Assembly (NCBI GenBank): GCA_001805615.1
Contig: MHGP01000073.1
Coordinates: 28,156 to 92,155 of the forward strand
Direction: 5' to 3'
From: Omnitrophica WOR_2 bacterium RIFCSPHIGHO2_02_FULL_48_11
GTDB taxonomy: Bacteria > Omnitrophota > Gorgyraeia > Zapsychrales > GWA2-47-8
DNA length: 64,000 nucleotides
The notes below the pieces were generated by a model. That model ran no database searches and was not told where the DNA came from. It saw only the letters and a program-made list of their open reading frames with translations. The first letter of the stretch is position 1. The number at the start of each line of letters is the position of its first letter. This document shows positions 15,425 to 44,284 of this stretch, one piece after another. Both the position numbers and the translations under genes were made by a program.

Positions 15425-16237
15425 ATGTCGTTGCAGATCGTCAGTATCTTGGGATGTGGCTGGTTGGGGTTACCGCTGGCCCAGCATTTGTTGCAGCTGG
15501 GCTTCACGGTCAAAGGCTCCACAACCACCTACGCCAAGTTAGAAGTTCTCCGTCAAGTAGGGATCCTTCCGTATCTTATCCATTGTCATCCGGACATCAA
15601 AGGCAAAGACGTTGCGGAATTTTTTGCCAGCGATGTCCTTTTTTTGAATATTCCGTTCCGGCGCAGTCTGGAAAATCCGGCCTTCTACAAAGAACAGATC
15701 CAATCGGTCGTGCGGCATGTCGAGCGTTCCACCGTGGATTTTGTTATTTTTGCCAGCTCCACGTCGGTTTATCCGGAAACGGACGGCTGGGTCACCGAGG
15801 ACCAGGACATTCGTCCGGCGGATCCGCGCGGCCGCGTTCTCTGGGAGACCGAAAATCTTTTAAGGGAAAATCCGCAGTTTGCGACGACGATCCTGCGGTT
15901 TGCCGGGCTTTACGGCGGCGAACGGAAGATCGGCAATTTTCTCTCCGGCCAGAGCGAGGTGGCGGAGGCCGACAGTCCGGTCAATCTGGTGCACCGCGAC
16001 GATTGCCTGGCGATCGTGAGCCAGATCATCCAACAGAATATCCGGGCAGAAATTTTTAATGTCTGCTCAGACGGTCATCCGAAAAGGAAAGAGCTTTATA
16101 CCCGCGCGGCGCTGCATTTGGGGGCAACCTCGCCGACCTTTGCGGCGAGTCAAGGCACAAGGTTAAAAAAAGTCAGCAACCAAAAGCTCAAAGAAAAATT
16201 GTGCTATCAATTTTTGCATCCGGACCCGTTACAGTAG
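15425..16237 (+). CDS. NAD(P)-binding Rossmann-fold oxidoreductase (NAD-dependent epimerase/dehydratase-like)
   Basis: N-terminal ILGCGWLG dinucleotide-binding motif. 270 aa. The overlapping alternate-frame ORF 15454..16059 is Arg/Gly-rich junk. Confidence 0.6.
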   Translation: MSLQIVSILGCGWLGLPLAQHLLQLGFTVKGSTTTYAKLEVLRQVGILPYLIHCHPDIKGKDVAEFFASDVLFLNIPFRRSLENPAFYKEQIQSVVRHVERSTVDFVIFASSTSVYPETDGWVTEDQDIRPADPRGRVLWETENLLRENPQFATTILRFAGLYGGERKIGNFLSGQSEVAEADSPVNLVHRDDCLAIVSQIIQQNIRAEIFNVCSDGHPKRKELYTRAALHLGATSPTFAASQGTRLKKVSNQKLKEKLCYQFLHPDPLQ

Positions 16238-16876
16238 TGATTTTTTAGATAACGCCGACCATTGGTTGGTCTTAAGGTCAAGCTCGGAAAAAGCAAAATA
16301 ATTGTGGTTGGTGCGGATGTTTTGCAGAAATCCGGCGAGAGTGGTGGCGCGGGTTTTTTTGAGCTCGGCATTGTCGAACCAGAAGTAATGCTCGCCGGCT
16401 TTAAAGACGCAAATGGCATGGGCCTGGCGGTCCTTGCGGACCGCTAAAAAGCGCGGCTGGTAGCCTAAGACCTGTAAGACCTCGGCATTAAAAAAAGTGT
16501 AATCCTCGCAATCGCCCCGTTTTTTGCGGAGAGTTTCCTCGGGAGTCGCCCACTGATCTTTTTTCTCATCCTTTTTGTAATGAATATTTTCTTTCAGCCA
16601 GCGCGCATAATCTTCCAGCGAGTGGATGTTGTGGACTTGGATGAGGTTGATGATCTTAAAATCTACTGATTTGGGGCGGGAGATAAGAACGCCGTCTTTG
16701 TGTTTGATCTTTTCCTGCTGAATGCGAAGCCGTGCGGTGGGAAGTGAGGTTGCCTCAGCCGATGGGATCGTGAGCAGGCCCGTCGAGAAACAGCAAAAAA
16801 ACCCGCCCAGGACAATTTTCAGGAAGAGGGAGGAAGACAACTGTTGTGACGCTAAATATCTGATGGACATTTGCAA
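16229..16876 (-). CDS. secreted transglutaminase-like cysteine protease superfamily protein
   Basis: Signal peptide. RGDCEDYTFFNAEVL...HAICVF...FWFDN supplies the Cys, His and Asp of a transglutaminase-like core. Confidence 0.55.
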   Translation of the reverse strand: MQMSIRYLASQQLSSSLFLKIVLGGFFCCFSTGLLTIPSAEATSLPTARLRIQQEKIKHKDGVLISRPKSVDFKIINLIQVHNIHSLEDYARWLKENIHYKKDEKKDQWATPEETLRKKRGDCEDYTFFNAEVLQVLGYQPRFLAVRKDRQAHAICVFKAGEHYFWFDNAELKKTRATTLAGFLQNIRTNHNYFAFSELDLKTNQWSALSKKSLL

Positions 16877-18585: not shown

Positions 18586-18614
18586 AAAATTTTTCAAAAC
18601 AGCGGGGGAGACGA

Positions 18615-19682
18615 ATGGAAATAGAAAATTTTTCTTCAACGAACATTTATGGCCCCATTGATCTCAATACGATCTCGGAGGAGCGGCTGCTCAATCTCCA
18701 CATCCGCGACCTGCCGATCACCATTGAAGGCACCTGGCTGGAAGGGTGCATCAGCGAACTCTCCCGCGAACTGCAGTCCAAGGGGATCGTCTTCCGGCCT
18801 TCCTGTTATCTCGCCGACGAATGGCTCACCCCGCAGAACGAAACGGTCATCGGTATTCCTTTTTATCTGGCGCATCCGCGGCTCACGGCGTTGGAACGCA
18901 AGATGATGCTCGAGGCCGAAGGGGAAGGCCAGAATTGGTGCATGAAACTCCTGCGCCACGAAACCGGGCACGCGATCTGTTACGCTTACAATCTCCACAA
19001 ACGTAAGAAATGGCAAAAACTTTTCGGTTCACCATCGGAAGATTACGGCGATACCTTCCGCTTCCGGCCGTACAGCAAGAATTTTGTCCGTCATCTGGAC
19101 GGCAATTACGCGCAGTATCATCCCGACGAAGATTTTGTCGAGACCTTTGCGGTCTGGTTCACCCCGGGGCTTGACTGGCGGACACAGTATAAAGGCTGGG
19201 GCGCGTTCGAAAAACTGCAGTACGTCGATGATCTCATGCAGGAGATCAATGGCCAGCCGCCGCTGGTCAAAAACCAGCAGAAATTTTGGCGCTTATCCAC
19301 GCTGAAGATAACGCTGGCGAATTATTACCGCAAAAAGCGCGAGTACCGCGCTGAAGACTTTCCGGATTTTCACGATGCCGGTTTAAAAAAGATCTTTGCC
19401 GAATCCAAACTGGATGTCCAAACGCTCCCGTTGGCTTCGGATCTTTTGGAAAAATATCACCGCGAGATCGTCAAGAGCGTCAATTTTTACACCGGCGAAA
19501 AAAAATATATCATCAATCAGCTGATCAAAACGACCCAAAAACGCTGTCAGGAACTGAAGCTGGTGGCCGTCGACCCGGAGCCGGTCGTGATCCTGCGGAC
19601 GACCAGTTACGTGACGGCGCTGGTCATGAACTATCTCTATACGGGCTGGTTCCGCGGCGAGAAAAATAAAAGGAAAAAATGA
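18615..19682 (+). CDS. hypothetical protein with HExxH (HETGH) putative zinc-binding motif
   Basis: 355 aa. LLRHETGHAICYAYNL contains HExxH. It overlaps the downstream ATP-grasp start by 4 nt (ATGA). Confidence 0.55.
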   Translation: MEIENFSSTNIYGPIDLNTISEERLLNLHIRDLPITIEGTWLEGCISELSRELQSKGIVFRPSCYLADEWLTPQNETVIGIPFYLAHPRLTALERKMMLEAEGEGQNWCMKLLRHETGHAICYAYNLHKRKKWQKLFGSPSEDYGDTFRFRPYSKNFVRHLDGNYAQYHPDEDFVETFAVWFTPGLDWRTQYKGWGAFEKLQYVDDLMQEINGQPPLVKNQQKFWRLSTLKITLANYYRKKREYRAEDFPDFHDAGLKKIFAESKLDVQTLPLASDLLEKYHREIVKSVNFYTGEKKYIINQLIKTTQKRCQELKLVAVDPEPVVILRTTSYVTALVMNYLYTGWFRGEKNKRKK

Positions 19683-20704
19683 AAAAGAAGTTAAAAGTTT
19701 TGCTGTTGTTCAGCAGCCCCTACCAAAAGCCGCGCGGCTACGATTACAAAGAAGAGATGGCTGACCCGGAGAATATGTACACGGAGAAGGACGTGCTGGA
19801 GGCGCTGCAGGCCAACGGGTATGAGGTGCGGATTCTAGGGATCCATAACGATACGACCCCGTTGTTTGAAGAGATCAAGGAATTCCCGCCGGATGTGATC
19901 TTTAATATGGTGGAGGTCTTTCAGGACAAGGCGCATCTGGACAAAAATATCGCCGCGATCCTGGAGATGCTCAACATTCCGTACACCGGGGCCTCGACGG
20001 GAAGTTTATTTTTATGCAACAACAAGGCCTTGAGCAAAAAGATCCTGAGTTTCCACCGCATCAAGGTGCCGTGGTTCTATACGTTTTACCGCGGCAAAAA
20101 AGTCTGGCTTCCCAAAAAGATGAAACTCCCCGTGGTCATCAAGCCTTTGTGCGAAGAAGCCTCTCGGGGGATCTCGCAGGCCTCGGTCGTGGACAATAAG
20201 GAAGCTTTTATCGAGCGCATCAAATTCATTCACGATAATATGAACATGGATGCGATCGCCGAAGAATATGTCGAAGGCCGTGAACTGTACGTGAGCGTTT
20301 TGGGCAGTAAAAAATTAACGGTTTTTCCGCCGCGCGAGCTGAAGTTCGGCCAGCTTCCCGAAGATGAACCGCGCATTGCCACGTATAAGGCCAAATGGGA
20401 CGACGATTACCGCGACCGCTGGGGCATCAAAAGTGTTTTTCCGGGCAAACTCGCCGACGGTGTGGAGGAAGAGATTACCGATGTCTGCAAACGGGCTTTC
20501 CGGGCGCTGGATTTGGACGGTTATGTGCGTTTTGATATCCGCGTCACTTCCGAGGGAAAAGTTTATATCATCGAGCCTAACGCCAACCCGTGCATCGCCC
20601 GGATCGATGAAATGGCCCAATCCGCGGGCAAGATCGAAATGGCGTACGAAGAACTCATCCGCAAGATCATCCTAACGGCTTTTCAACGGACCACGACAAG
20701 GTAG
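19679..20704 (+). CDS. ATP-grasp ligase, D-Ala-D-Ala ligase-like family
   Basis: VVIKP (Lys), EEYVEGRELYVSVLG, YKAKWDDDY, and IIEPNANP (Mg-binding E/N). The N-terminal pre-ATP-grasp domain resembles Ddl. Confidence 0.8.
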   Translation: MKKKLKVLLLFSSPYQKPRGYDYKEEMADPENMYTEKDVLEALQANGYEVRILGIHNDTTPLFEEIKEFPPDVIFNMVEVFQDKAHLDKNIAAILEMLNIPYTGASTGSLFLCNNKALSKKILSFHRIKVPWFYTFYRGKKVWLPKKMKLPVVIKPLCEEASRGISQASVVDNKEAFIERIKFIHDNMNMDAIAEEYVEGRELYVSVLGSKKLTVFPPRELKFGQLPEDEPRIATYKAKWDDDYRDRWGIKSVFPGKLADGVEEEITDVCKRAFRALDLDGYVRFDIRVTSEGKVYIIEPNANPCIARIDEMAQSAGKIEMAYEELIRKIILTAFQRTTTR

Positions 20705-20706
20705 CG

Positions 20707-21951
20707 ATGACGATAGAAAAACTCATTCAATTTGTCAGCAACAATTTTGAGATACTTGTCTGGTTCAATGCGACCTGGGTCGCGTGCCTGGTCATTATCT
20801 GGGTGCTGGTCAAGATCCAGGTTGTCTCCAATTACAAACCGCGGACCTTGATCCCCGGGGTGATGCTGTTTCTGGTTACTGTGGGGCAAATAGCGATGAT
20901 CTTTTTGTCCGGCTATATTTACTGGCTGAATTACCAGCACAAAAGCGCCGAAACTTTCGGCCAGCGGCTTACCCCGACGACGAACTGGGTCAAAGAGGAC
21001 CTGGTGATCTATTTTATTTCCGATAAAAGTCTGCTTTCCATCAACGCCAACGGCGCGAATAAAAGGGAAATTTTTCAGGCGCCGGACAAGATCCGGGAAT
21101 ACCATTTTTCGCCGGACGGAAGGTTCCTGGTGATCGTCACCGAGCGGGAGCTGCATTTGTTTCACCGGGATTCGCGGCAGAGTGTCTTGATCGACTCTAT
21201 TCCCGCGTCGGATCCGGCCTTGCAGCTGAACGGTGTCATCGGCCGGGTCAGCTGGTCCCCGGACAGCGGGAAGTTCTGCTATGAAGTGGCCAAGTGGTCT
21301 AAGGTGTCTTCGCACACCCAATTTAATATTTATGATCTGAAAAGCAAAGAGAAGCATCCGCTGCACAAACTGGCCCAAAAGATCCCGTCTTTGTATTGGG
21401 ATATGGCCGGCGAGAATCTTTACTTTTTTAAATCCGAATCCATGGATACCTCGCGTTACCCGTATCCGCACAAGATCAAGATCTGCAAAATTCCGCTGGC
21501 GACATTCGAGGTGGAGATAGTGGCAGAGATCCTCACGAAAGAAATGGACATTGCGCGGCTGGATGTCGAGGCCCGCGGCATCAAGCTTTTTTGGGAGGGC
21601 GCCAAGTTTTCTTTCAACCGTTCCGGCCCGCGGGATTATGACTGGGTTTCGGACACGGGGTCGCGGCTGGGCATCGACGCGGATGACTTTCTCTATTATA
21701 TTAAGAACCGCTGGTGGCGGAAGCGGCTGTTTCGCGTGCCGCGCGTTCCTTTTCCGGGCGAATTTAAGCGTTATCAGTTTGAGGGAGGGATCCTTTCGGT
21801 GGGACACCTGCGCTGGCTGCCGGGCAGCCGTTATGTGATCATGGGACACAGCACCCACGGGATCTTGATTCTGGAGCCAGGGACAGGCAGGATCGGACGC
21901 CTGACCAATACCCCCGGATATACGTTTGGGTGGTATCAACCGATCCAGTAG
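20707..21951 (+). CDS. membrane-anchored WD40/PD40-like beta-propeller protein (TolB-like repeats)
   Basis: Two N-terminal TM helices, then FSPDGRFLVIV, WSPDSGKF and LYWDMAGENLYF repeats. The co-extensive minus-strand ORF is judged spurious. Confidence 0.7.
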   Translation: MTIEKLIQFVSNNFEILVWFNATWVACLVIIWVLVKIQVVSNYKPRTLIPGVMLFLVTVGQIAMIFLSGYIYWLNYQHKSAETFGQRLTPTTNWVKEDLVIYFISDKSLLSINANGANKREIFQAPDKIREYHFSPDGRFLVIVTERELHLFHRDSRQSVLIDSIPASDPALQLNGVIGRVSWSPDSGKFCYEVAKWSKVSSHTQFNIYDLKSKEKHPLHKLAQKIPSLYWDMAGENLYFFKSESMDTSRYPYPHKIKICKIPLATFEVEIVAEILTKEMDIARLDVEARGIKLFWEGAKFSFNRSGPRDYDWVSDTGSRLGIDADDFLYYIKNRWWRKRLFRVPRVPFPGEFKRYQFEGGILSVGHLRWLPGSRYVIMGHSTHGILILEPGTGRIGRLTNTPGYTFGWYQPIQ

Positions 21952-24780: not shown

Positions 24781-24838
24781 AAAAAGGGGTCAAGTCCCTT
24801 TTTCCTTTTTAATGAGCATTGGGAGGGAGGAGCGATGA
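24707..24838 (+). CDS. 43-aa single-TM peptide (truncated paralog of 25930..26229), or a coupled upstream ORF or pseudogene fragment
   Basis: MGSSGFNFVITWGFLGLGLGILLVIKRGQVPFSFLMSIGREER. Its stop overlaps the ATG of the downstream MORN gene (ATGA). Confidence 0.35.
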   Translation: MGSSGFNFVITWGFLGLGLGILLVIKRGQVPFSFLMSIGREER

Positions 24839-25758
24839 ACTTTAAAAAAGTTTATATCCAATTCTTTATGGTGTTTGCTTTTTGCTTGGCGGTCAGTCAT
24901 TCTGCATCTGCCCTCTGTGGTCGTTTCGGGGATGACCAGATGGATGATTTTCTCGAGGCGGACATCGTTGTCATAGGGCAGGCTTCCGGCGTGACCAAGA
25001 CGAGTGATCATTACGCTTCTACCACTCAGGGAGCACGATTCAAGATCGTTGAGATTTTGAAAGGAAACGCTCGCGGGACGATCACGGCCTACCGTTTTGA
25101 ATGCAGTGGCCATTCATTTCAAGAAGGCGGTGGGTACATTATTTTTGCCGTCAAAAATAAGCAGGGCGGTTATGATGTCCGGCAGGCCTCGCCGGCCGCT
25201 GGGGAGTCTTATAATGAACAAATGGAGTCCCCAAAATCCGCTGAAAGTAAACTTTCCGAACTCCGGAATATCTCGCAGTTTTATAAAAAGGTCATTCTCG
25301 CCAATGGCGACGGACAGATGCAGACGCATTACGACAGCGGACAGGTCAAGGTTGAGAGGAATTACAAAAAAGGCAAGCTTGACGGTGATTACCAGGTTTT
25401 TTTCCCGAACGGGCAGGTCAAAGGCCGGGTGCATTACGTCGCCGGGACGAAGGATGGAGGATCCAGCTGGTATTATGAAACCGGCAAGGAGTGGTACATG
25501 TGCTCTTATAAGGAAGGCTACGAGGACGGGGTCTGCAAACTGTTTGACCAAAACACCGGTCAGGTCGTGGTCGAAAGGACCTTTCGCGGGGGCGAAGAGA
25601 TGGGGGTGGTCTATTACAAAAACACTGGAAAGCTGGAGTACAGAGATGTGCTCAATGCCTCTGGGGGCTATGACCGGACCTATTATGATGAAAAGGGATC
25701 AGTGACCCGCACGGTCTCCGATTATGCTAAGCCGCAGCCCAAGGTAAAGAACCGCTAA
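24835..25758 (+). CDS. secreted MORN-variant (YwqK-family) repeat protein
   Basis: Signal peptide. The C-terminal half has about five repeats of the form G..k.y..nGq..G..h.Y...g (YDSGQVKVERNYKKGKLDGDYQVFFPNGQVKGRVHY...). Confidence 0.7.
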   Translation: MNFKKVYIQFFMVFAFCLAVSHSASALCGRFGDDQMDDFLEADIVVIGQASGVTKTSDHYASTTQGARFKIVEILKGNARGTITAYRFECSGHSFQEGGGYIIFAVKNKQGGYDVRQASPAAGESYNEQMESPKSAESKLSELRNISQFYKKVILANGDGQMQTHYDSGQVKVERNYKKGKLDGDYQVFFPNGQVKGRVHYVAGTKDGGSSWYYETGKEWYMCSYKEGYEDGVCKLFDQNTGQVVVERTFRGGEEMGVVYYKNTGKLEYRDVLNASGGYDRTYYDEKGSVTRTVSDYAKPQPKVKNR

Positions 25759-26306: not shown

Positions 26307-26335
26307 TTGACAAATTTTAGGCCAGAGATTATACT
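26307..26335 (+). promoter_or_regulatory. consensus sigma70 promoter TTGACA-N17-TATACT
   Basis: TTGACA at 26307-26312, a 17-nt spacer, and TATACT at 26330-26335. It drives the PEP-CTERM gene. Confidence 0.6.
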
Positions 26336-26397
26336 TGCGCTATTGTTTGGGGGTAAATATTTTAAGATCACAAAAAATTATTCACGAGGAGAGAGTC

Positions 26398-27045
26398 ATG
26401 AAGGCGATACAAAAGGTTTTGGTCGGATTTTTAGTAAGCTTGGCGGTGCTTGTTGTACCGCAAAAAGCGCAGGCGATCGTTGTTTTTGATAATACAGAAA
26501 ATTTTTTTACATCAGGCAGTTATCTGCTGATGACCCAGGGAGCCCCTTTTGATTTTGATAATGATCAGGCTGCAGGGTTCACAGTCACAGGCGGATCTTA
26601 TGCGCTGAACTCGATAGAACTTCCGGTGACTTTTTCTCAGGGTCCTAACGAATTTGATCTTTGGCTGGTAAATGATAACGGAGGTCAGCCCGGCAGTCTT
26701 TTGGAGAGCTTTCATTTCAGCAATCCTCCGGAAGGAACGTATTATACTTGGTTGACCGCAAACTCGGCATCTAACCCGGTGCTCAACGACGGCAATTTGT
26801 ATTGGGTCGTCGGTTCTGCGACCGGACCGGATGCGGTTATCGGCTGGAATGTGAGCCGTACAAATGGATATGCGGCGCATACCGCAGAGGACGGAAACGG
26901 GTGGCATGTAGGTTCTGACTGGAATCGGGGCGCCTTTCGCGTCACCGGAAGTGAACCTGGCCAAGCGCCTGTCCCCGAACCGGCCACGTTATCTTTATTC
27001 GGTGCCGGGTTAGCCGGATTCTTGTTGCGCAGACGTAAAAAGTAA
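26398..27045 (+). CDS. PEP-CTERM sorting-domain secreted protein
   Basis: The start is re-picked at 26398 after GAGGAGAGAG. Signal peptide ...PQKAQA. The C-terminus is PVPEPATLSLFGAGLAGFLLRRRKK, i.e. a PEP motif, a TM helix and a basic tail. Confidence 0.8.
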   Translation: MKAIQKVLVGFLVSLAVLVVPQKAQAIVVFDNTENFFTSGSYLLMTQGAPFDFDNDQAAGFTVTGGSYALNSIELPVTFSQGPNEFDLWLVNDNGGQPGSLLESFHFSNPPEGTYYTWLTANSASNPVLNDGNLYWVVGSATGPDAVIGWNVSRTNGYAAHTAEDGNGWHVGSDWNRGAFRVTGSEPGQAPVPEPATLSLFGAGLAGFLLRRRKK

Positions 27046-27129: not shown

Positions 27130-29100
27130 TTAATATAACGCGGCGCCATCTTTGCAAATACATTCTGAGGTACAGAGTTTTGTGGTCGGACAGCCATCCG
27201 GAACATTTTTTGGATCGCATTGTTCCCCCGGATCCATCCTACCGTTACCGCATTTACTCACGCACATACACCCGACACATTCTTTATTAGGGTCGGCGCA
27301 AAGTTGAGCTGGAAGTTTAGTCGTATCGCACTGCGGTTTTTCAGTCAATTGCTTACTATTCATTTTGCAATAATAAGCAGGGTTAGGGATACACTGACAA
27401 AAAACATCGCATATTTTAACCGGATCTGTAGGATTAGCCGGATTGCACTCCGCGTCGTTTTGGCACTGCGGTTCTCTATAAGTAGCATTTTTTCTACAAA
27501 GATAAGGGGGTGGCGGGCCTTCTGTCTCTGTGATCGCCGGGGGTATTTCGTTTGTCGCTGGAGGAGTCGGAGTAGTGTAGGTTATAGTAATATCCGTCTG
27601 GGGCGGCGGACGTAAAGTTTCATTCGACCCCCCGCCAATGACACATTTGAATGCACAAGTATGATAGGCCTTTAACATCAACGGCAGATTTAAATAAAAT
27701 TTGGTATGCGTGTCCGGCCCGGCAAAAAGATGCTCAGCCTTGCTTCCCTCTACCGGATTATTTTGCGACGGCCCGGAAAGGACTCCGTCGCCGGATTGAA
27801 AGTTTGCATCCGTCGTGTACCAATGCACCACCTTAACCGACTCTGGACGTTTATAAGGACCGAATCCATCAGTCACTTCCTGCCATGGTTTAAAAGACAG
27901 GAACCAATTGATCATGGTCGTAATGGCGCTGCCCATGGGATACTTATTTCCCAAAGAATTGAATCCATCAAAGGATTTGCCTAAAAGCGGTGTCGCATAG
28001 GTGTGCACACGGATAGGCATATTGAATTCTTTGACCACACTGTCTAATTTTGAAGCGGCTTTTGCGGCGACGACACCGCCAAAACTCCATCCGACGACGG
28101 CGATTTCTCTATAAGGCCTGATCTGCATCGGGTCTATGTTCTTCAGGCTCTCCCTTATAAATGTGACTAACTTGTCAGAGATCTCGTCCGAAACTTCGTT
28201 TCCCTCCCACGGAAACAGGACAAAATCAAAGCACGACATGCTTTCTGTCTGCGTAGCCCATGCGACAAAATCTTTCCAAGCGGTCGCATCGTTGCCTAAT
28301 CCCGTGATAAAAACAACCAGAACCATGCAATTTTTTCCGTTTGTACCGTAATTAAATTTACCCGGCACGCCAAAAAACGGCACTCTTCCCAAGGTATCCG
28401 GGGGCAGTTTAAATTTATTAAGGTCATCGCTATAAATTTTATTGCTTAGCGCAATGCTTCCCGGCGGAAGACCCATAAGCGATTCCAAAGTTTTGAAATG
28501 TTCCTGCTCCTTGACCGGAAGCTGACTTGAGGCAACAAAAACCCCCAACCCGTTAGGATGGATGGCCATAAATTTTCCAGGATTACTCACATCGGGAATG
28601 ATGATGTTTTCCGGGACTATGTAAGCGAGAATCAATGTCCCGGTCACATCGTAAACCACATAATAATTTCCAAATCGTTTTTCGAGCCGATCCCAGCGAA
28701 GAGCATTATTATAAGGAAGGGCACAATCCCCCTGGCAAGGACCTACCGCAGGGAACATTTCTACGTGGGCAGGAACCGCCTTCGTAAGATAAGGGCCGGT
28801 CGTGATTTTAATGAGCGGCTGGAGGGGTAAATAATCTTTCTTATTCTTAAAACTTATTTCATAAAAATCGCTGAAATATCTGACGGTAACCGTGTCGTCC
28901 GGAGATCCGTTAGGGTCCCTGATCTCGACCGTTGTCCCGTAATCGAAAACCCCACCGTTGACCGTTTCTTTCCAGTCATAGCGGTGAACGTAAGGGGTAA
29001 TATCCCAAGGATTGTCTTTGAGAATGGTTTGTGCGTGGGCGGCGGGAATACTAAGGATAAAAAGAAAACAGGTCAGAACGGTCAATTTCTTAAAATACAT
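27130..29100 (-). CDS. secreted alpha/beta-hydrolase (lipase/esterase GxSxG) with Pro/Thr linker and C-terminal Myxococcus-type cysteine-rich repeats
   Basis: Signal MYFKKLTVLTCFLFILSIPAAHA. Nucleophile elbow VVGWSFGGVVAA. PT-rich linker TITYTTPTPPATNEIPP. The C-terminal ~130 aa hold about 24 Cys, including CGNGRMDPGEQCDPKN (the CGxGxxxxGExCD repeat signature). Confidence 0.7.
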   Translation of the reverse strand: MYFKKLTVLTCFLFILSIPAAHAQTILKDNPWDITPYVHRYDWKETVNGGVFDYGTTVEIRDPNGSPDDTVTVRYFSDFYEISFKNKKDYLPLQPLIKITTGPYLTKAVPAHVEMFPAVGPCQGDCALPYNNALRWDRLEKRFGNYYVVYDVTGTLILAYIVPENIIIPDVSNPGKFMAIHPNGLGVFVASSQLPVKEQEHFKTLESLMGLPPGSIALSNKIYSDDLNKFKLPPDTLGRVPFFGVPGKFNYGTNGKNCMVLVVFITGLGNDATAWKDFVAWATQTESMSCFDFVLFPWEGNEVSDEISDKLVTFIRESLKNIDPMQIRPYREIAVVGWSFGGVVAAKAASKLDSVVKEFNMPIRVHTYATPLLGKSFDGFNSLGNKYPMGSAITTMINWFLSFKPWQEVTDGFGPYKRPESVKVVHWYTTDANFQSGDGVLSGPSQNNPVEGSKAEHLFAGPDTHTKFYLNLPLMLKAYHTCAFKCVIGGGSNETLRPPPQTDITITYTTPTPPATNEIPPAITETEGPPPPYLCRKNATYREPQCQNDAECNPANPTDPVKICDVFCQCIPNPAYYCKMNSKQLTEKPQCDTTKLPAQLCADPNKECVGCMCVSKCGNGRMDPGEQCDPKNVPDGCPTTKLCTSECICKDGAALY

Positions 29101-29827: not shown

Positions 29828-30892
29828 ATGCTGTATCTTAAGGTAAGAAACATCACTATTTTAATTTTTGTTTTTCTTGTTGCTTCTGGAAATGGCCGGA
29901 GCGAGGCTGACCTGTTGATGTCGGATTTGTCCTTAGCCGCTGAAGCGGGCGTGGGGAGCAATTTGCGCGGATTATCTGGGGCAGCGGAAATGTTTGCCAA
30001 CGCCAATCAAGGCCGCTATCCGGCGAGTATTTCCGATTTGGTCAGTGCCAATCCACCGTATCTTTTTGAAGATTGTTGCGGTAAGACCATCGAAGGGTTT
30101 CAATATTCCTGTAATTTTTCGCCGAAAGGATATGAATTCACCGCAACAGCCGTCGATAGTCAAAAGTTCGGTCCAAGAATTTTTAAAGCTGCGACCGGTC
30201 AGCAGATGACCGGCCCGGAAATGAAGATGGTCAATGATCCTAAATACGGTTCTAAACCGGCGTACCAATATCTTTTTGTTTCAGACAATAAAAGTTTTAC
30301 AAAGAAAGCTATGGCTAACGGCGTTGCGATTGTTTATTTTGGGTTTGATGAAAATACTCCCTTTGAAGAAACTCAAAAATATCTTAAGTCCGGAACCATT
30401 CAAGACATTTATGATATGGACAATATGATAAGAGAATATGCTAATAAAAACGGCTATGCGTTTATCTATGAGGCCATCCAGTGTCAGTGCAATGAAGAGG
30501 ATATTACCCATGACCTTAGGGAATATTTATATAAAGCCAAATATAAGAAAGATCGCCCTATTCAGGTAGATGGGGTCCAGGTGAGAAATGACGCTCAGGG
30601 GCAAAGGGTCGAGACGTCATTTATGAACAATAAGAAAAACGGGCCGGAAAAGACGTATTATGATACCGGTGAGTTATATGAAGAAAAGAATTATAAGGAC
30701 GGAAATTATGATGGTATCTTTAAACAATATTATAAGGACGGAACCCTGATGGCTGAGTACCATTTTAAGAATGGCGAATCTGCGGGGGAAACAAGAACGT
30801 ATTATGAAGATGGAAAATTGCGGTCGGTTACCGGGAGCAGACCTGACGGAGGCACGGTGATATACGACCGTGAAGGCAATGTGCGTCAATAA
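29828..30892 (+). CDS. secreted protein with C-terminal MORN-variant (YwqK-family) repeats
   Basis: Signal peptide. The C-terminal third has repeats KTYYDTGELYEEKNYKDGNYDGIFKQYYKDGTLMAEYHFKNGESAGETRTYYEDGKL. The N-terminal two thirds are unassigned. Confidence 0.65.
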   Translation: MLYLKVRNITILIFVFLVASGNGRSEADLLMSDLSLAAEAGVGSNLRGLSGAAEMFANANQGRYPASISDLVSANPPYLFEDCCGKTIEGFQYSCNFSPKGYEFTATAVDSQKFGPRIFKAATGQQMTGPEMKMVNDPKYGSKPAYQYLFVSDNKSFTKKAMANGVAIVYFGFDENTPFEETQKYLKSGTIQDIYDMDNMIREYANKNGYAFIYEAIQCQCNEEDITHDLREYLYKAKYKKDRPIQVDGVQVRNDAQGQRVETSFMNNKKNGPEKTYYDTGELYEEKNYKDGNYDGIFKQYYKDGTLMAEYHFKNGESAGETRTYYEDGKLRSVTGSRPDGGTVIYDREGNVRQ

Positions 30893-31460: not shown

Positions 31461-33962
31461 GTGAAGGATAAATTTCAATATAATGATTTTCGTATTTACG
31501 GGTTACTATTTTTTGCTCTCAGCGTTTCTCTTATATTTCTCCCAACCCCTATCTTTGCCGAAGCACAACTTAAAATTACAAACGAAGGAACACTCTATAT
31601 AAGTGCCGATAACGACGCTGATAAATTTTTTGCTCTGGGATACGGTTATGCTAAGGCCATGCCGGACAGATTGGGGGCCAAGATAGCCCGGGACTGCAAC
31701 TATAGCCGTCATGAAAATGGACAAAACTACAACATTTTAAATGGGGTGGCCTATCTCTATCGACCCCCGGCGGTCGATTTTGACGAACGTGGAAGGCTAT
31801 TGCCGATCCCCAGCGGAAAGATGCCCACACCGGTTATGGTTGATATGGCCCGTCATTTTGACGGCACGTGTCAGGATATGGAGGAAGTCTGGAATTCTCT
31901 GAGCGTTGAGCAGCGAAATCATTTTAGCAATTTGGCTGCCGGTTATAATTATTATTTCGAAACAAACTGGACTGCAGGAGACGCAGTTGCTGTCAAATAC
32001 CCATTTTTGCAAAATTTTAAAGGAGCTGAACTTAACCCAAAAATCCTCCCCTTTGAAGGACCAGGCTTTCAATCTCTGTATGAGTGGAAGACATTAATAG
32101 AGATTGTACAAAACCCCCCTAAAAATTATAAGGAGGCTGTACAGCTGCAAAATTCTCAGCCGATCTATGCCACGGCTTCTTTTAATTCTCACCTCAATGG
32201 CCCGTCTCTGGCCAAGGACACTCTGGCGGTCAATTTTGGGTCAATCCATGTGCCCATGTATAGCCAAGGTCAGGTCGTAACTGTAGCCATTTCTGATGAG
32301 GATCCCATTACCGGAGAAGTCAAACGTACAATGGTCGGTGGAGCGGTCGAATTAACTTTACCGACTATCTTTAGTAAATGGGACGAGTTGGGGAAGGGGA
32401 CATCCTTGAATGTCGTTGCAAAAAATTTGCAAATACCAACCATCTACGCCATCAAAATCCCACGGGGATCGTTGACTCAGTATATTGATCCTCTAAGTGG
32501 CCGATCCGTCCCGTATGAAACGAAAATTTATACCTTTAGGACCGGAAATGGAAAGGCCTATACCCGCACGGTTAAAAAAGTTCCTGGTTTCGGTAAAGTC
32601 TTTCATATCGGTTCGGATTACGCATTGACCTTTCATAAAGATGTTCAAAAGGATCTCTGGGGGTTATTTACTCATGAACTTTATACTGCTGAAAATACGG
32701 CTGCGGCGGTCCGCAAGGCCTTTCAGGATAGACAGGGGAACCCTCTGGTTAGCGGATTTACCTTCACGGCGGTTCATGTTGACTCCCATAATCCTATTTC
32801 TTCCAGCACCGGAACAGCGTACAGCGTTGGTTTTGTTCCCCGGTTTAATAATCCTAATAAAGTGACGGAGTTAATTCTGGCTAAGCGCGATAAAATTTTG
32901 CCGGCTAATGTGGACACCCAAGCTAAAGGCATCTTGTCTTTAAATGAAATTCAAACGATCCTCGCTCCGGGAGAAGTGGGTCCGATGGTGAATGGGAATA
33001 CGCCTTTATCAACTGTTTTAGGTCATAAGCAGCAATATTTGCATCCAAAAAATTCCGAGATTTCTTACCCTCTCCATTACGGGGGGGTCACCGAACCTTT
33101 TGAAAGAGGACATTCCATAACAGGAAAGGTCCTCACGGAACGATTGGTCAAAAAGGGAGATGTGACCTGCGATGATTACTTTACAGGCGTGGTGGATAGT
33201 TACGATAATGTGACCTTAAGGGATTCTTTAAAAATTTATTATTCTGCGATAGAAAAGTATGGCATGGCTCTCGTCAATGATTCAGCGCCCAAGGCATGGA
33301 TTATGGGGACTTTATTGGATGCCGTTATGCATTATTGGGATTTTCAGGCCAGAGGAGACGATCCCTTGGCGGCGGTGTTCGGGGTTTTTTATTACCTCCT
33401 GGATAAAGAAATTTCAAATCTGCAAAACACTGATCCCGCTTTAGCTGCTGAACTGAAAGAATTTCTGGGGGCTTCCGTTATCATGGCAGAGACCGGTTCT
33501 GAACCTTCGCTTTCTTTTGAAGCGGCAAAAATTATCACCGATAAAATTATTGATTCCGTTGATACCCTCATTCAATCCGGTTGGAGAAAATTAGCGGACA
33601 TGCAACAAACTTGCTTTTGGAGTCAAGACGATAAAGGTTATAAGTTAGAATGCTACCCGTTCGACCGAGGTTCCAACGGGCCCAACGCCAATGGTGCGGG
33701 TTGGGATCCGGTCGCCAGAAAATTCACCCGTGGCGGCGGCAACCAATTTCCCATCTTTTCTTGCTATACCAAAGATGGGCTCAAAGTGAAATATCAGAAC
33801 AATATCAGCGGTTGGACCCTGGGCTCCGGCCCGGCGGCCCATACCGCCAGGAATTTCGCTCAAGGCGTCTGGAGTGAATTCAATGAATTTGAGCACGTGC
33901 CGCCCGCAGAAGTCATTTTTGAGAAAAACTTTGGGCATTCCCGCCAACCGGTTCTCCCATAG
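31461..33962 (+). CDS. large secreted protein of unknown function (833 aa)
   Basis: GTG start after GGAGGG. N-terminal signal/TM (YGLLFFALSVSLIFLPTPIFAEA). No motif recognised across 800 aa. Confidence 0.7.
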   Translation: MKDKFQYNDFRIYGLLFFALSVSLIFLPTPIFAEAQLKITNEGTLYISADNDADKFFALGYGYAKAMPDRLGAKIARDCNYSRHENGQNYNILNGVAYLYRPPAVDFDERGRLLPIPSGKMPTPVMVDMARHFDGTCQDMEEVWNSLSVEQRNHFSNLAAGYNYYFETNWTAGDAVAVKYPFLQNFKGAELNPKILPFEGPGFQSLYEWKTLIEIVQNPPKNYKEAVQLQNSQPIYATASFNSHLNGPSLAKDTLAVNFGSIHVPMYSQGQVVTVAISDEDPITGEVKRTMVGGAVELTLPTIFSKWDELGKGTSLNVVAKNLQIPTIYAIKIPRGSLTQYIDPLSGRSVPYETKIYTFRTGNGKAYTRTVKKVPGFGKVFHIGSDYALTFHKDVQKDLWGLFTHELYTAENTAAAVRKAFQDRQGNPLVSGFTFTAVHVDSHNPISSSTGTAYSVGFVPRFNNPNKVTELILAKRDKILPANVDTQAKGILSLNEIQTILAPGEVGPMVNGNTPLSTVLGHKQQYLHPKNSEISYPLHYGGVTEPFERGHSITGKVLTERLVKKGDVTCDDYFTGVVDSYDNVTLRDSLKIYYSAIEKYGMALVNDSAPKAWIMGTLLDAVMHYWDFQARGDDPLAAVFGVFYYLLDKEISNLQNTDPALAAELKEFLGASVIMAETGSEPSLSFEAAKIITDKIIDSVDTLIQSGWRKLADMQQTCFWSQDDKGYKLECYPFDRGSNGPNANGAGWDPVARKFTRGGGNQFPIFSCYTKDGLKVKYQNNISGWTLGSGPAAHTARNFAQGVWSEFNEFEHVPPAEVIFEKNFGHSRQPVLP

Positions 33963-39874: not shown

Positions 39875-41395
39875 ATGGCTTTGAGAGTTAAGAGAACACT
39901 GCGGATCCGGGGTTTATTTTTATTTTTCTTGATCGCTATGACTTCTTTTGCCTTTAGCCAGCCGGAAATCAAAGAACCCAATGTCAGCGGGCAGTTTTAT
40001 GACGCTGATCCTAAGCGTTTGTCCCGCATGGTGGATGAGTTCCTGAGCCTGGCCTCCGTCCCGCAGAAAGACAAAAGAATAGAAATGATCATTGCTCCGC
40101 ACGCCGGGTATGTGTATTCCGGGGCCGTAGCCGGATACAGTTTTAAGGCGGCCAGTCAAGGAAAATATAAAACAGTGGTGATCGTCGCCCCGAGTCATTT
40201 TTACGAATTTGACGGTGTTTCGATCTGGAAAGAGGGGGGATTCAAAACGCCTTTAGGGGTGGTGGCGGTGGATCAAGATTTTACGGAAAAATTGATCGGC
40301 CGAAATGCAAAATTTTCTTTTGACGCCGCGGCGTTCGATCGGGAACATTCCCTCGAAGTGGAAATTCCTTTTTTGCAAAGAACGTTTAGTGATTTTAAAA
40401 TTGTGCCGGTGGTGATGGGCCAGGCGACGTTTCAGACGTGCGAGGCCTTTGCCGCAGCGCTCAAAGAGGTGATCGGTGACCGGGAAGATGTGCTGATTGT
40501 CATCAGCACGGATCTGTCCCATTACCACGATTATGACCTTGCCCGGGAGATGGACCATCGCACTTTGGCGGCCGTCAAAATAGGCAATGCCCAAGAATTG
40601 TGGAAACAGTGCCGCTTGGGAACAATGGAGATGTGCGGTTTTATTCCGGTGACAACCGCGCTTTTATACGCTCAGCTCAAGGGATTGAACGATGTGGAAA
40701 TTTTGCGGTATGCCAACTCCGGGGATGTGACCGGAGACCGCGGCCGGGTAGTCGGGTATTCGTCGGTGATCTTTTATGAGGGAACAGAGAAGACCCCTGT
40801 GGATAAAAAAGCCGCAGCAGAAGTTCCTGCCCAGGCCGGGTCGTTCACGCAAGAGCAAAAAAAGCGGCTGCTTGAGATCGCGCGCGGCACCATCGAAGAG
40901 TATGTGCGCACCGGCAAGAAAGTGGAAGTTTCGGAAACAGACCCGCGCCTTCTCAGGGAAGAAGGGGCGTTCGTGACCATCCATCGGCAAGGCCAGCTGC
41001 GCGGCTGCATCGGGAACATTATCGGACAGGGGCCGCTTTATCTCACCGTGCGTAATATGGCCATCGCGGCCGCCTCGGAAGATCCGCGGTTTCCGCCGGT
41101 CAGCGAAGCAGAGTTAAAGGATCTTGAGGTGGAAATTTCCGTCTTGTCGCAGCCCAGGCCCGCTAACAGTATTAAGGAGATTACCATGGGAGTACACGGG
41201 GTGATCGTCAAGAAAGGATTTCATGGCGGGGTTTTTTTGCCGCAGGTGGCGACCGATACCGGCTGGAGCCGGGACGAATTCCTCTCTCAGCTGTGCGAGC
41301 AGAAAGCCGGATTGCCGCGCGATTGCTGGAAAGATCCCAGAACGCGGTTGGAAATTTTTACGGCGGAAGTTTTCTCGGGAAAAGACGTAAAATAA
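39875..41395 (+). CDS. Memo-like / AMMECR1 fusion protein with N-terminal signal peptide
   Basis: The N-terminal half has MIIAPHAGYVYSGAVAGY and VIVAPSHF (Memo/extradiol-dioxygenase class III-like). The C-terminal half has FVTIHRQGQLRGCIGNIIG...ASEDPRF (AMMECR1). The first 30 aa (LRIRGLFLFFLIAMTSFAFSQP) look like a signal peptide. Confidence 0.8.
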   Translation: MALRVKRTLRIRGLFLFFLIAMTSFAFSQPEIKEPNVSGQFYDADPKRLSRMVDEFLSLASVPQKDKRIEMIIAPHAGYVYSGAVAGYSFKAASQGKYKTVVIVAPSHFYEFDGVSIWKEGGFKTPLGVVAVDQDFTEKLIGRNAKFSFDAAAFDREHSLEVEIPFLQRTFSDFKIVPVVMGQATFQTCEAFAAALKEVIGDREDVLIVISTDLSHYHDYDLAREMDHRTLAAVKIGNAQELWKQCRLGTMEMCGFIPVTTALLYAQLKGLNDVEILRYANSGDVTGDRGRVVGYSSVIFYEGTEKTPVDKKAAAEVPAQAGSFTQEQKKRLLEIARGTIEEYVRTGKKVEVSETDPRLLREEGAFVTIHRQGQLRGCIGNIIGQGPLYLTVRNMAIAAASEDPRFPPVSEAELKDLEVEISVLSQPRPANSIKEITMGVHGVIVKKGFHGGVFLPQVATDTGWSRDEFLSQLCEQKAGLPRDCWKDPRTRLEIFTAEVFSGKDVK

Positions 41396-41874: not shown

Positions 41875-43167
41875 ATGAATAAAATTTGGCACACATTGTT
41901 CCTGGAAGAGCGTCCCTCGGTGAGCCTCTCATTATTCCGGATCGCGGTCGCCATCACCGTCGGCGCCCACGTCATTCCGACATTATGGAACCTGCCGGAC
42001 AATTATTACGCCACCGCGCTTAAAACTTTTAATTTTGATTTTTTCCCTGTACAGCTCATTGAGCTTGTTCAGCGCAGCTCGGACCAGACGGTCTTGTTCT
42101 TTGTTATTGTCTTTTATGTTTTTTGGTTCTTTTTCCTGATCGGATTGTTCAGCCGGTTGAGCTGCATCCTGATGACCCTGGCCGGGTATTATTTTTATGC
42201 GTTGAATTCGCTGCATGTCGGGACCTTGTCTTGGGATATCTTGCTGGTCACGCTTTTTCTCATGTGCTTGACACCGTATCACGGCGACTATTTTTCCGTC
42301 GATGCCGTGCGGCGGGGGGATGCGGGAAGCTACAAGCGAAAGCGGCCGTTCTTTCTGCAGCGGTTGCTGCAGATCCAGATCGCTTCGACATTTTTTTATA
42401 CGGCGCTTTATAAGATCACCGGCACCGGCAACTGGATCAGCGGCAATCCTATTTATTATCTGATGAATTATCCGCCGGCGGGTGTCACCAAATGGTTCCT
42501 GCTGCGGGATTTTTTTATGGACAAGCCCGGCCTTTGCTATGCGGCGGGCCTCTTGATCCTGATCATTGAAATTTCGATGCCGGTCTTATTGTTCTGGCGA
42601 CGCACCCGGATGTCGGCGATTTATGTGGGGTGCTTTTTTCATCTCGTCCTCATTTTAACGCTGGATGTGCCGGCGATCTTCTTTTTTCTCTTCCCGCCGC
42701 AACTGTTGTTATTCATCAACCCGGAAAATATCGTGCGTTGGATCGAACAGAAGCGCCGGGCTAACGCGCAGGCTCCGCAGAGTCAGCTTATCTACGACGG
42801 GCATTGCCAATTTTGCCGGCGCAGCGTACAACAGCTGCAGGTCATGGATTTATTCCATACGCTTAAAATGGTGGACTTCCAGTCGACCAGTCATTTGGAG
42901 GCATTGCATCCTGAGCTGAGCAAGGAGCGCTGTGCCAGCCAGCTCCATTTGCTTGAACCCGACCGAACATTGTACGGAGGATTTGCGGTCTTTCGGCGGC
43001 TGTGCCTTATCCTGCCGATGCTGTATCCGTTCATATTGCTGTTTTATTTTCCGGGCTCGGGGATCGTCGGTCCGTTCGTCTATCGCTGGGTCGCGCAAAA
43101 CCGGTATCTTTTTCATTTCAATAAAACCTGCAAAGACAATGCCTGCTTTTTGGGGCATGGAAAATAA
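41875..43167 (+). CDS. HTTM-domain (vitamin K-dependent gamma-carboxylase / SdpB-like) membrane protein fused to C-terminal DCC/DUF393 thiol-disulfide oxidoreductase domain
   Basis: About 300-aa polytopic N-terminus with an HTTM-like pattern (LSLFRIAVA..., multiple aromatic TM helices). The C-terminus is LIYDGHCQFCRRSVQ...LYGGFAVFRRL, which is the DCC-family DGxCxxC signature. Confidence 0.7.
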   Translation: MNKIWHTLFLEERPSVSLSLFRIAVAITVGAHVIPTLWNLPDNYYATALKTFNFDFFPVQLIELVQRSSDQTVLFFVIVFYVFWFFFLIGLFSRLSCILMTLAGYYFYALNSLHVGTLSWDILLVTLFLMCLTPYHGDYFSVDAVRRGDAGSYKRKRPFFLQRLLQIQIASTFFYTALYKITGTGNWISGNPIYYLMNYPPAGVTKWFLLRDFFMDKPGLCYAAGLLILIIEISMPVLLFWRRTRMSAIYVGCFFHLVLILTLDVPAIFFFLFPPQLLLFINPENIVRWIEQKRRANAQAPQSQLIYDGHCQFCRRSVQQLQVMDLFHTLKMVDFQSTSHLEALHPELSKERCASQLHLLEPDRTLYGGFAVFRRLCLILPMLYPFILLFYFPGSGIVGPFVYRWVAQNRYLFHFNKTCKDNACFLGHGK

Positions 43168-43942: not shown

Positions 43943-44284
43943 ATGAAATATTTAAAATTTTTCATTCTTTTGGCAATCTTAAGCACCGCCGGAACGTCTT
44001 GGGCTATCCCGGCGTCCAAGATCGAGCTGAGCTATGATCCGGGAAAAAAGATCTTGCATACGAAAGTCAGCCATGTCACCCAGCGCAATCGCAAGCATTA
44101 TATCCGCTCCATCATTGTTTATAAAAACGATCAGGAAGTCAAATCTTTGCATTATGTCGTGCAGGAAAAGTCTTCCGGGGTGGAGGAGGATATCCCTCTG
44201 GAAGCCAATAAAGATGAAGTGATCCGTGTCAAAGCCCAATGCACGGAATCCGGCCCGAAAGAAGAAACGCTCGTCATCCCTTAA
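43943..44284 (+). CDS. small secreted protein (hypothetical)
   Basis: Signal peptide ...TSWA. 113 aa. No motif recognised. Confidence 0.5.

Follow-up and report, generated by a model that had tools for sequence, protein, structure and literature searches.

When two genes that overlap by a few nucleotides code for a putative metallohydrolase and an ATP-grasp ligase, and neither lies among peptidoglycan genes, the question arises as to what the two enzymes do together. We have found such an arrangement in Omnitrophica WOR_2 bacterium RIFCSPHIGHO2_02_FULL_48_11, in a stretch of 64,000 nucleotides of contig MHGP01000073.1 that was analyzed as a whole (hereafter the window). On its forward strand a 355-amino acid HExxH zincin (gene 1, 18615–19682; open reading frame list, Pfam, AF2 model and homologue alignments) precedes a 341-amino acid ATP-grasp amide ligase with the Ddl fold (gene 2, 19679–20704; Pfam, NCBIfam, PDB profile search and AF2/Foldseek), both frames lying exactly where the original prediction had placed them. 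The sequence at the junction reads ATGA (19679–19682, forward strand), in which the TGA stop codon of the zincin (19680–19682) runs over the ATG of the ligase (19679–19681). A Shine-Dalgarno-like GGGGGAG (18604–18610, forward strand) is found 4 nt 5' of the zincin ATG, which itself lies 29 nt beyond the stop codon of the preceding gene, and an AAGGA lies just 5' of the ligase start codon. Only 2 nt separate the end of the pair from the downstream gene.

The zincin was assigned to Peptidase_Mx (PF15887), an uncharacterised zincin family, with a score of 31.7 bits against a Pfam gathering threshold of 27, the match covering only residues 112–182. The same model was matched by all 40 members of a set of diverse homologues (best E-value 1.4e-11), nine of which also matched Peptidase_Mx1 (PF15890) and three the ATLF model. 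The HETGH at residues 115–119 (H115, E116 and H119; 18957–18971, forward strand) did not vary in 31 close and 40 distant homologues, and it is the predicted zinc-binding and catalytic motif of gene 1. Across the 40 sequences, which come from many phyla, H115, E116, H119, D173 and E176 were invariant. The last two are located in the HPDEDFVETFAVW helix (residues 169–181; 19119–19157, forward strand; alignments and AF2 model), in and around which Q167, P170, D173, E176 and F178 show no variation across phyla. Either E176 or E172 on this helix is the probable, putative third zinc ligand, and the ExxF pattern of the helix is one that we take to be comparable to the lethal-factor/MtfA-type motif. 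The AF2 model (pLDDT 77) shows an N-terminal alpha/beta catalytic domain (approximately residues 20–200), a helical C-terminal domain of about 150 residues (approximately 200–343) and a disordered tail rich in K and R. Foldseek comparisons with this model gave as top match 4l7a, a putative zinc metallopeptidase of Bacteroides, with weak E-values (0.65–1). The anthrax lethal factor was recurrent among the structural matches (probability up to 0.85, E about 1, some 120–160 residues), and the matches that a profile search found among PDB sequences were marginal. The alternative of a merely helical protein does not hold, given the family membership and the invariant motif, and gene 1 is predicted to be a catalytically competent HExxH zinc hydrolase. 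Neither a signal peptide nor a membrane segment was found in the sequence of either protein, and the predicted location of the zincin is the cytoplasm. We have also considered the zincin C-terminus as a substrate of the ligase, but the tail shows no conservation between phyla, and for this reason the idea was dropped.

The ligase matches PF07478 (Dala_Dala_lig_C), PF02655 and PF13535 in Pfam, and its best solved relative is Ddl whether judged by sequence, profile or fold. The AF2 model (pTM 0.81) matched Ddl structures (Foldseek E 1e-19, TM 0.68), with the flexible lid loops in the same places, while in the PDB profile search Ddl was followed by L-amino-acid ligase, PurD, biotin carboxylase and CphA. 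The residues were mapped onto the sequence of E. coli DdlB, with all its landmark residue numbers correct. All the ATP- and Mg-binding residues are kept, as had been anticipated: K116, K155, E195, E202, K239, R284, D286, E299 and N301 are equivalent to K97, K144, E180, E187, K215, R255, D257, E270 and N272 of DdlB, respectively. The residues in contact with D-Ala, in contrast, are replaced (in DdlB numbering, S150 by A161, Y216 by W240, G276 by C305 and S281/L282 by D310/E311). A comparison of 30 sequences from many phyla showed that the family conserves an acidic [DE][DE] pair, K239-W240, R284-D286-R288 and E299-N301-N303, of which R288 and N303 are additional invariant residues relative to Ddl; the remodelled substrate pocket comprises A161, W240, R288, N303 and D310-E311. 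The N-terminal part differs as well. The Ddl N-domain model (PF01820, Dala_Dala_lig_N) found no match in the Pfam search, and after strand 1 a variable insertion of approximately 20 residues takes the place of the Ddl GGxSxE motif. The Glu of this motif (E15) binds the amino group of the first D-Ala in Ddl, and the position aligned to it is not conserved here. The curated Ddl models NF002378 and TIGR01205 gave 125.3 and 107.4 bits against cut-offs of 243 and 245.65, and the ligase fell still further under the cut-off of the remaining Ddl/Van models of NCBIfam. Nevertheless, its best 25 NCBIfam matches were all Ddl/Van models, with no RimK model among them. On these sequence features gene 2 would represent a sister family of the D-Ala-D-Ala ligase rather than Ddl itself, which agrees with the original prediction in separating it from a housekeeping Ddl. 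The window holds no second Ddl-like gene.

The association of both genes goes far beyond this genome and far beyond chance. Starting from the zincin, the ligase was located directly 3', in the same order and on the same strand, in 78 of 82 genome loci belonging to at least 10 phyla; starting from the ligase, the zincin was 5' of it in 69 of the 71 informative metagenome loci. We measured the junction in 76 related loci. An overlap of 4 nt or 1 nt was found in 33 and a gap of 1–5 nt in another 23, tight junctions adding up to 56 of 76, and these, together with the ATGA of the window, bear out the translational coupling that had been proposed. The pairwise identity matrices of zincin and ligase were correlated with r = 0.92, a value that none of 999 Mantel permutations reached. 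The pair is spread over the PVC superphylum, Acidobacteriota, Myxococcota, Bdellovibrionota, Nitrospirota and others, the family being present also in Alphaproteobacteria, and it is carried by an Omnitrophota genome of only 1.27 Mb; its inheritance looks vertical. No fusion of the two genes was detected, the long frames being out-of-frame over-extensions. There are a few exceptions. Three zincin loci have no adjacent ligase, and one close relative (L085, with a ligase 79% identical) has no adjoining zincin gene; zincin and ligase are thus separable, at least in position. No replacement ligase appeared at the zincin loci that lack it. A secreted M28 peptidase takes the place of the ligase at two loci (L054 and L067), and at another (L161) a ligase without zincin is adjoined by an M28 peptidase. 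These M28 proteins have not been counted as partners because all three have signal peptides.

We have looked for other genes that might belong to the same system. In the window the pair has as neighbours a 218-amino acid protein without family match and a 414-amino acid protein with weak PD40/Tricorn-like beta-propeller matches, and nearby there is a transglutaminase-like protein on the opposite strand (16229–16876; Pfam), all of them present as first described. These three are common only to the loci of the closest relatives, and Pfam searches of the neighbouring genes, about 75 on the upstream and about 75 on the downstream side, found no family recurring in more than three loci. They are local neighbours and lie outside the system. 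All-against-all clustering of the neighbours kept only zincin and ligase, with no third conserved gene, and no transporter, exporter, epimerase or other pathway gene was conserved near them. As had been noted for this locus, mur or ddl genes were absent from the window, and also from the conserved neighbours over approximately 160 loci. The genomic settings are housekeeping contexts of many kinds. Neither protein matched a PADLOC defence model or PHROGs. Zincin and ligase are, in short, a self-contained and conserved two-gene module that is passed on as one unit.

What the module does can be proposed with some caution. Like Ddl, the ligase would first convert a carboxylate into its acyl phosphate, which would then be joined to an amine in an amide bond, its substrates being presumably other than D-Ala plus D-Ala. 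The site corresponding to S281/L282, by which Ddl grips the incoming D-Ala at its carboxylate group, is invariably acidic, and therefore the amine partner is probably cationic, a prediction based on the homology mapping to Ddl only; a diamine or polyamine, a residue of the Lys, Orn or Arg type, or a basic peptide might fit. Translational coupling would keep zincin and ligase at a constant ratio, the two would probably form a complex, and the hydrolase would cleave the amide bond made by the ligase or a close relative of that bond; that both act on the same bond is what we consider most likely. Their substrate would be a small molecule or a peptide rather than a protein. We tentatively prefer, at somewhat less than an even chance, a cytoplasmic ligase and hydrolase, likely in a complex, that make and break a single amide bond, the substrate being encoded outside the locus. 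Such a pair could control how much of a small amino-acid or peptide conjugate is present, or how long it becomes, its building blocks likewise being encoded outside the locus, with the same make-and-break logic as cyanophycin synthetase/cyanophycinase or RimK/RimB. The suggestion that the pair adds and trims amino acids is in this respect a reasonable analogy.

A difficulty for this make-and-break reading is that a ligase and a hydrolase expressed together constitutively on one bond would amount to a futile ATP cycle unless regulated, which favours consecutive rather than opposite steps: the zincin would free an amine or carboxylate block and the ligase would join it to another acceptor in salvage or biosynthesis, for example in the recycling of cell-wall or other peptides. 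No futile cycle arises in such a pathway; coupled genes in a strict order, here with the hydrolase in first place, are what enzymes of successive steps typically show, and the varied housekeeping contexts in which the pair occurs are compatible with it. However, no pathway gene of the kinds listed above is conserved nearby, mur or recycling genes do not adjoin the pair at any locus, and the sequences point to no particular precursor, so we regard it as possible at about one chance in a few. The lack of linked small-molecule pathway genes would suit protein tagging. In that case a target protein would receive one amino acid or several from the ligase, either at its C-terminus or on the side chain of a Lys, and the zincin would remove the tag or process the target, after the models of RimK and S6, tubulin tyrosine ligase and carboxypeptidase, or pupylation and depupylation. 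Lethal-factor/MtfA-type zincins act on proteins or peptides, the acidic second-substrate site of the ligase could take a Lys, and the extra helical domain of 150 residues and the basic disordered tail of the zincin might serve such a role. Yet Ddl, the closest relative of the ligase, is a small-molecule enzyme and the lid loops over a small pocket are kept; RimK models are missing from the best 25 NCBIfam matches, no conserved target gene adjoins the pair and the C-terminus of the zincin shows no conservation between phyla, all of which makes tagging rather unlikely. Slightly less probable again is its most ambitious form, a new bacterial system in which a Ddl-derived ATP-grasp enzyme tags cellular proteins and a dedicated zincin erases the tag; if true, bacteria would have in it their own counterpart to the tyrosination/detyrosination of tubulin, or to pupylation.

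Cell-wall chemistry of the conventional kind fits the data poorly. The closest solved relatives are Ddl and VanA, some sources label the homologues D-alanine-D-alanine ligase, and VanA/VanX is a precedent for a cassette of ligase and zinc-dipeptidase; the ligase could accordingly be imagined to make D-Ala-D-Ala or D-Ala-D-X, either as housekeeping Ddl or in Van-type remodelling, with the zincin as D,D-dipeptidase or carboxypeptidase. Against this stand the scores of 125 and 107 bits where curated Ddl models demand 243 and 246, the absent Dala_Dala_lig_N match, the replaced D-Ala contacts with the carboxylate-binding Ser/Leu now acidic, a zincin unrelated to VanX/M15 and the absence of VanH or mur/dcw neighbours. 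Moreover, the family is present in Myxococcota, Alphaproteobacteria, Acidobacteriota and others, groups in which a canonical ddl is known from dcw clusters. We consider this explanation very improbable. Even less credible, and hardly worth more than mention, is a RiPP or graspetide-like cluster in which the zincin removes the leader of a precursor, or else anti-phage defence. Graspetide loci do include combinations of ATP-grasp enzymes and metallopeptidases (PMC8939145). Here, though, the intergenic gaps at both sides of the pair are too small for a precursor ORF, there is neither a conserved neighbour, small or large, nor an exporter, and the ligase groups with Ddl and not with graspetide ligases. 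The empty PADLOC and PHROGs searches speak against defence, and the apparently vertical inheritance, even in the 1.27-Mb genome, against both.

Full-text searches of the literature gave no account of the pair, nor did PMC8939145, with an earlier mention in Iyer et al. (2009) being possible. A homologue search from a member of the Bdellovibrionales recovered only MAG proteins with generic names. In databases the zincin is a putative zinc-binding metallopeptidase and the ligase an ATP-grasp domain-containing protein or, wrongly, a D-alanine-D-alanine ligase. This label can mislead attempts to reconstruct the cell wall from PVC and candidate-phylum genomes, and correcting it is therefore useful in itself. 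The two-gene unit is found coupled and intact in thousands of genomes of at least 10 phyla, and offers the search for new enzymes a compact and well-defined target, two soluble proteins with a testable prediction, that one joins a carboxylate to a cationic amine and its partner hydrolyses the product. A metabolite or a protein modification that is new, and widespread in environmental bacteria, might come to light in this way.

Compared with known systems, the ligase has in common with Ddl and VanA the three-domain ATP-grasp fold, the ATP/Mg and acyl-phosphate residues and the positions of the lid loops. It differs in an identity to Ddl of about 20–25%, in reaching half of the curated Ddl cut-offs, and in never being found in a mur/dcw setting in the loci examined, being paired instead with a zincin. 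From RimK/LysX-type ligases it is set apart by having Ddl/Van models as its best matches. The zincin, in turn, has the HExxH helix and downstream acidic helix of Peptidase_Mx and Peptidase_Mx1, although only its core, residues 112–182, fits the Pfam model, the conserved N-terminal region and the helical C-terminal domain being peculiar to it. It is also cytoplasmic by prediction, whereas the Peptidase_Mx1 proteins are SusCD-associated lipoproteins of Bacteroides (PDB 4l7a and 9urd). Anthrax lethal factor and MtfA (M34/M90) likewise combine HExxH with a Glu on a later helix, in an E-x-F-A-type motif, but the resemblance is weak and limited in extent, as the structural matches indicated. In the VanH-VanA-VanX cassette the ligase is accompanied by an M15 D,D-dipeptidase and a D-lactate dehydrogenase; here its partner is a zincin of Peptidase_Mx, and the neighbours include no conserved dehydrogenase. 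Cyanophycin synthetase/cyanophycinase, RimK/RimB, PafA/Dop and VanA/VanX all place an ATP-dependent amide ligase beside a hydrolase for the same type of bond, the make-and-break design proposed for this module too. Unlike in them, the ligase is Ddl-like and not of the RimK, CphA or GS-like type, the hydrolase is a Peptidase_Mx zincin instead of a serine, aspartic or M15 peptidase, and the two genes are more tightly coupled and present in far more phyla.

We have identified both genes of the original prediction in the ORF listing and in the sequence, the gene of the HExxH protein, hereafter the zincin (18615-19682, + strand, 355 aa), and the ATP-grasp ligase gene (19679-20704, + strand, 341 aa). 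The TGA of the former and the ATG of the latter overlap as ATGA, with AAGGA immediately 5'. The zincin ATG is located 29 nt past the stop codon of the upstream gene, with GGGGGAG 4 nt 5' of it, and the downstream neighbour starts 3 nt beyond the ATP-grasp stop.

The pair is kept together across genomes. A scan from the zincin side, with one genome per species, gave at least 528 relatives, and we analyzed the best 80 loci together with 2 found earlier. In 78 of the 82, the gene directly downstream and on the same strand codes for an ATP-grasp homolog (36-71% identical); one of the four exceptions is a record ending at the zincin gene. From the ligase side, we took as informative the 71 of 80 metagenome loci with at least 400 nt upstream, and 69 of them had a zincin there. 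According to record titles, in which MAG labels may be wrong, the carriers include Omnitrophota (one a complete 1.27-Mb chromosome), Planctomycetota, Verrucomicrobiota, Lentisphaerae/Kiritimatiellia, Acidobacteriota, Myxococcota, Bdellovibrionota, Alpha- and Gammaproteobacteria, Nitrospirota, Gemmatimonadota, Methylomirabilales and Dormibacterota. Over 76 junctions we counted 28 overlaps of 4 nt, 5 of 1 nt and 23 gaps of 1-5 nt, and no zincin-ligase fusion was found. The pairwise identity matrices of both proteins (73 loci) correlated with r = 0.92, a value reached by none of 999 Mantel permutations, which fits co-inheritance, although a high value would be expected from shared species phylogeny by itself. 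One contig with a gammaproteobacterial label, Nevskiaceae (L013, JBEIOK010000001.1), has a pair that resembles the Omnitrophota versions (52% and 60% identity) much more than those of other Proteobacteria (about 43% and 41%), through either horizontal transfer or a binning error perhaps.

Few loci have a single partner. The ligase most similar to that of the window (79% identity) is found in a metagenome contig (Ga0265297_10002889, L085:2186-4020), where local synteny is preserved in the order pfkB, 228-aa protein, ligase, LexA and propeller. LexA has been inserted downstream of the ligase, and the zincin gene is absent, with just 128 nt at its expected place, as if it had recently been lost or relocated. 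In another metagenome locus, L161, a calcineurin-like phosphoesterase takes the zincin's place, with a 4-nt overlap with the ligase start, and an M28 peptidase follows the ligase (L161:4202-6076). A secreted M28 peptidase also follows the zincin, where the ligase is expected, in two Acidobacteria (L054:7295-8773, with a PA domain, and L067:about 1560-2936). These three loci each lack one partner, and M28 was found in none of the other ~158. All three M28 peptidases have signal peptides, and for this reason we do not count them as part of the system.

Nothing beyond the zincin and the ligase belongs to the module. All-against-all ORF clustering of the 82 loci revealed no third conserved gene, these two being the only ones in more than 7 loci, and Pfam scans of ~75 upstream and ~75 downstream immediate neighbours, many of them in convergent or divergent orientation, detected no family that recurs beyond 3 loci. 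The pfkB, 218-aa, 414-aa beta-propeller and SPOR protein genes of the window recur in the closest relatives only, and the transglutaminase-like protein, pointed out originally as a nearby gene, recurs in none. In a different bacterium the pair, again with a 4-nt overlap, is located between GT4 glycosyltransferase and CBS/oxidoreductase genes. The 414-aa protein (20707-21951, +) carries a membrane segment at its N-terminus and gives weak matches to PD40/Tricorn-like beta-propellers; the 418-aa ORF antisense to it (20683-21939, -) is probably spurious.

Elsewhere in the window, three ORFs (27130-29100, -; 31461-33962, +; 53468-56713, +) code for 656, 833 and 1081 aa with no Pfam match at E<=1e-5. 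A PEP-CTERM-tailed secreted protein (26335-27045, +) and two MORN-repeat-variant proteins (24835-25758 and 29828-30892, both +) are found in a region where GC is lower (0.43-0.46) and short unannotated ORFs are numerous. There are also two domain fusions, HTTM with a DCC1-like thiol-disulfide oxidoreductase (41875-43167, +) and Memo with AMMECR1 (39875-41395, +), followed by a DUF255/thioredoxin-DsbH protein (44239-46413).

The first gene codes for a real zincin of an uncharacterised family, probably an active one. Pfam Peptidase_Mx (PF15887, described as a "putative zinc-binding metallo-peptidase") matches residues 112-182 only, its 31.7 bits lying above the gathering score (27), and an NCBIfam model of SusCD-associated zinc metallohydrolase lipoproteins matches faintly. 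A word-indexed search retrieved more than 7,700 homologs, and an exhaustive one against 50%-identity representatives 2,019 clusters at E<=1e-3, of which 541 reach E<=1e-30. In an alignment of 31 close homologs, all share H115, E116, H119 and the helix H169-P-D-E-D-F-x-E-T-F-A-x-W. Across 40 representatives of many phyla (32-52% identity) R114, H115, E116, H119, Q167, P170, D173, E176 and F178 are invariant; among 40 diverse homologs, PF15887 matched all 40, Peptidase_Mx1 9 and the anthrax lethal-factor domain 3. The AF2 model (pLDDT 76.9) has an alpha/beta N-terminal part, with the HExxH helix at 106-124 and the second ligand helix at 170-182, a helical C-terminal domain and a disordered tail (341-355). 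PDB sequence and profile searches gave no solid match and Foldseek weak ones only, the best being 4l7a, a putative zinc metallopeptidase of Bacteroides (E 0.65), and anthrax lethal factor (probability up to 0.85). The zincin is predicted to be cytoplasmic, since its sequence contains neither signal peptide nor membrane segment. In a multi-phylum alignment, Omnitrophota zincins end in YTGxFRG and a disordered Lys/Arg-rich tail (window 19640-19679), and many from other phyla in a short sequence resembling G-[RH]-[HY]-R-[IV]-x-[LM].

The second gene codes for a Ddl-like ATP-grasp enzyme, as expected, that stands beside rather than within Ddl. Pfam detected Dala_Dala_lig_C (86 bits) and generic ATP-grasp domains, with no match to the Ddl N-terminal domain, and the best NCBIfam Ddl models scored 125 and 107 bits, about half of their curated cut-offs (243 and 246). 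Among solved structures those of Ddl are nonetheless the nearest, whether judged by sequence (3r23, 1.7e-16), by family profile (3.6e-37, with VanA next and, far below, an L-amino-acid ligase, PurD, biotin carboxylase and CphA) or by fold (AF2 model with pLDDT 79.8 and pTM 0.81; Foldseek to 3i12, E 1e-19, TM 0.68, 20% identity). Residues were mapped to the E. coli DdlB sequence, all landmark residues falling at their published numbers. On this mapping the ATP/Mg and acyl-phosphate residues are retained (K97, K144, E180, E187, K215, R255, D257, E270 and N272), whereas the D-alanine-contacting ones are altered (S150→A161, Y216→W240, G276→C305, S281→D310 and L282→E311). The enzyme therefore looks catalytically competent and yet is predicted not to be a D-Ala-D-Ala ligase. 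In 30 family members from many phyla, K239-W240, R284-D286-R288 and E299-N301-N303 show little or no variation, and positions 310/311 are Asp/Glu-Asp/Glu in all 30. In place of the N-terminal GGxSxE motif of Ddl there is a variable insertion of ~20 residues. The acidic pair falls at the site that in Ddl binds the incoming amino acid by its carboxylate, and the amine partner may therefore be positively charged.

Both enzymes are soluble and keep their catalytic residues, and their genes stand in strict order, hydrolase then ligase, are translationally coupled, have been co-inherited over very long evolutionary distances and have no dedicated substrate gene beside them. From this we infer that the two form a module, probably as a complex, and that its substrate would be one already present in all carriers. 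In this module the ligase would join a carboxylate, through an acyl phosphate as in Ddl, to a probably cationic amine, and the zincin would cleave the resulting amide or a closely related one. With moderate confidence, we propose a make-and-break pair acting on a small amino-acid or peptide conjugate. A sequential salvage pathway would avoid a futile cycle, and we regard it as a possible though less probable reading; a protein-tagging and tag-erasing system appears more doubtful still. A Van-like or housekeeping Ddl role is largely excluded, as the ligase falls outside Ddl in the membership tests. The least probable is a RiPP or defence system, which the genomic context excludes: the window has no space for a precursor-peptide ORF beside the pair, and neither protein had PADLOC or PHROGs matches.

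An ATP-grasp ligase beside a peptidase is a known theme. For this combination, with its tight coupling and phyletic breadth, we found no description in the literature searched, which did not extend to the amidoligase survey of Iyer et al. (2009). The pair is an unknown that is clean, widespread and accessible to experiment, and the recurring annotation of the ligase homologs as "D-alanine-D-alanine ligase" is corrected. The zincin is a member of Peptidase_Mx, a family without known function, and the ligase of the ATP-grasp superfamily, in a sister group of Ddl that is distinct from it. The make-and-break pair proposed here would act like cyanophycin synthetase and cyanophycinase, or like RimK and RimB.
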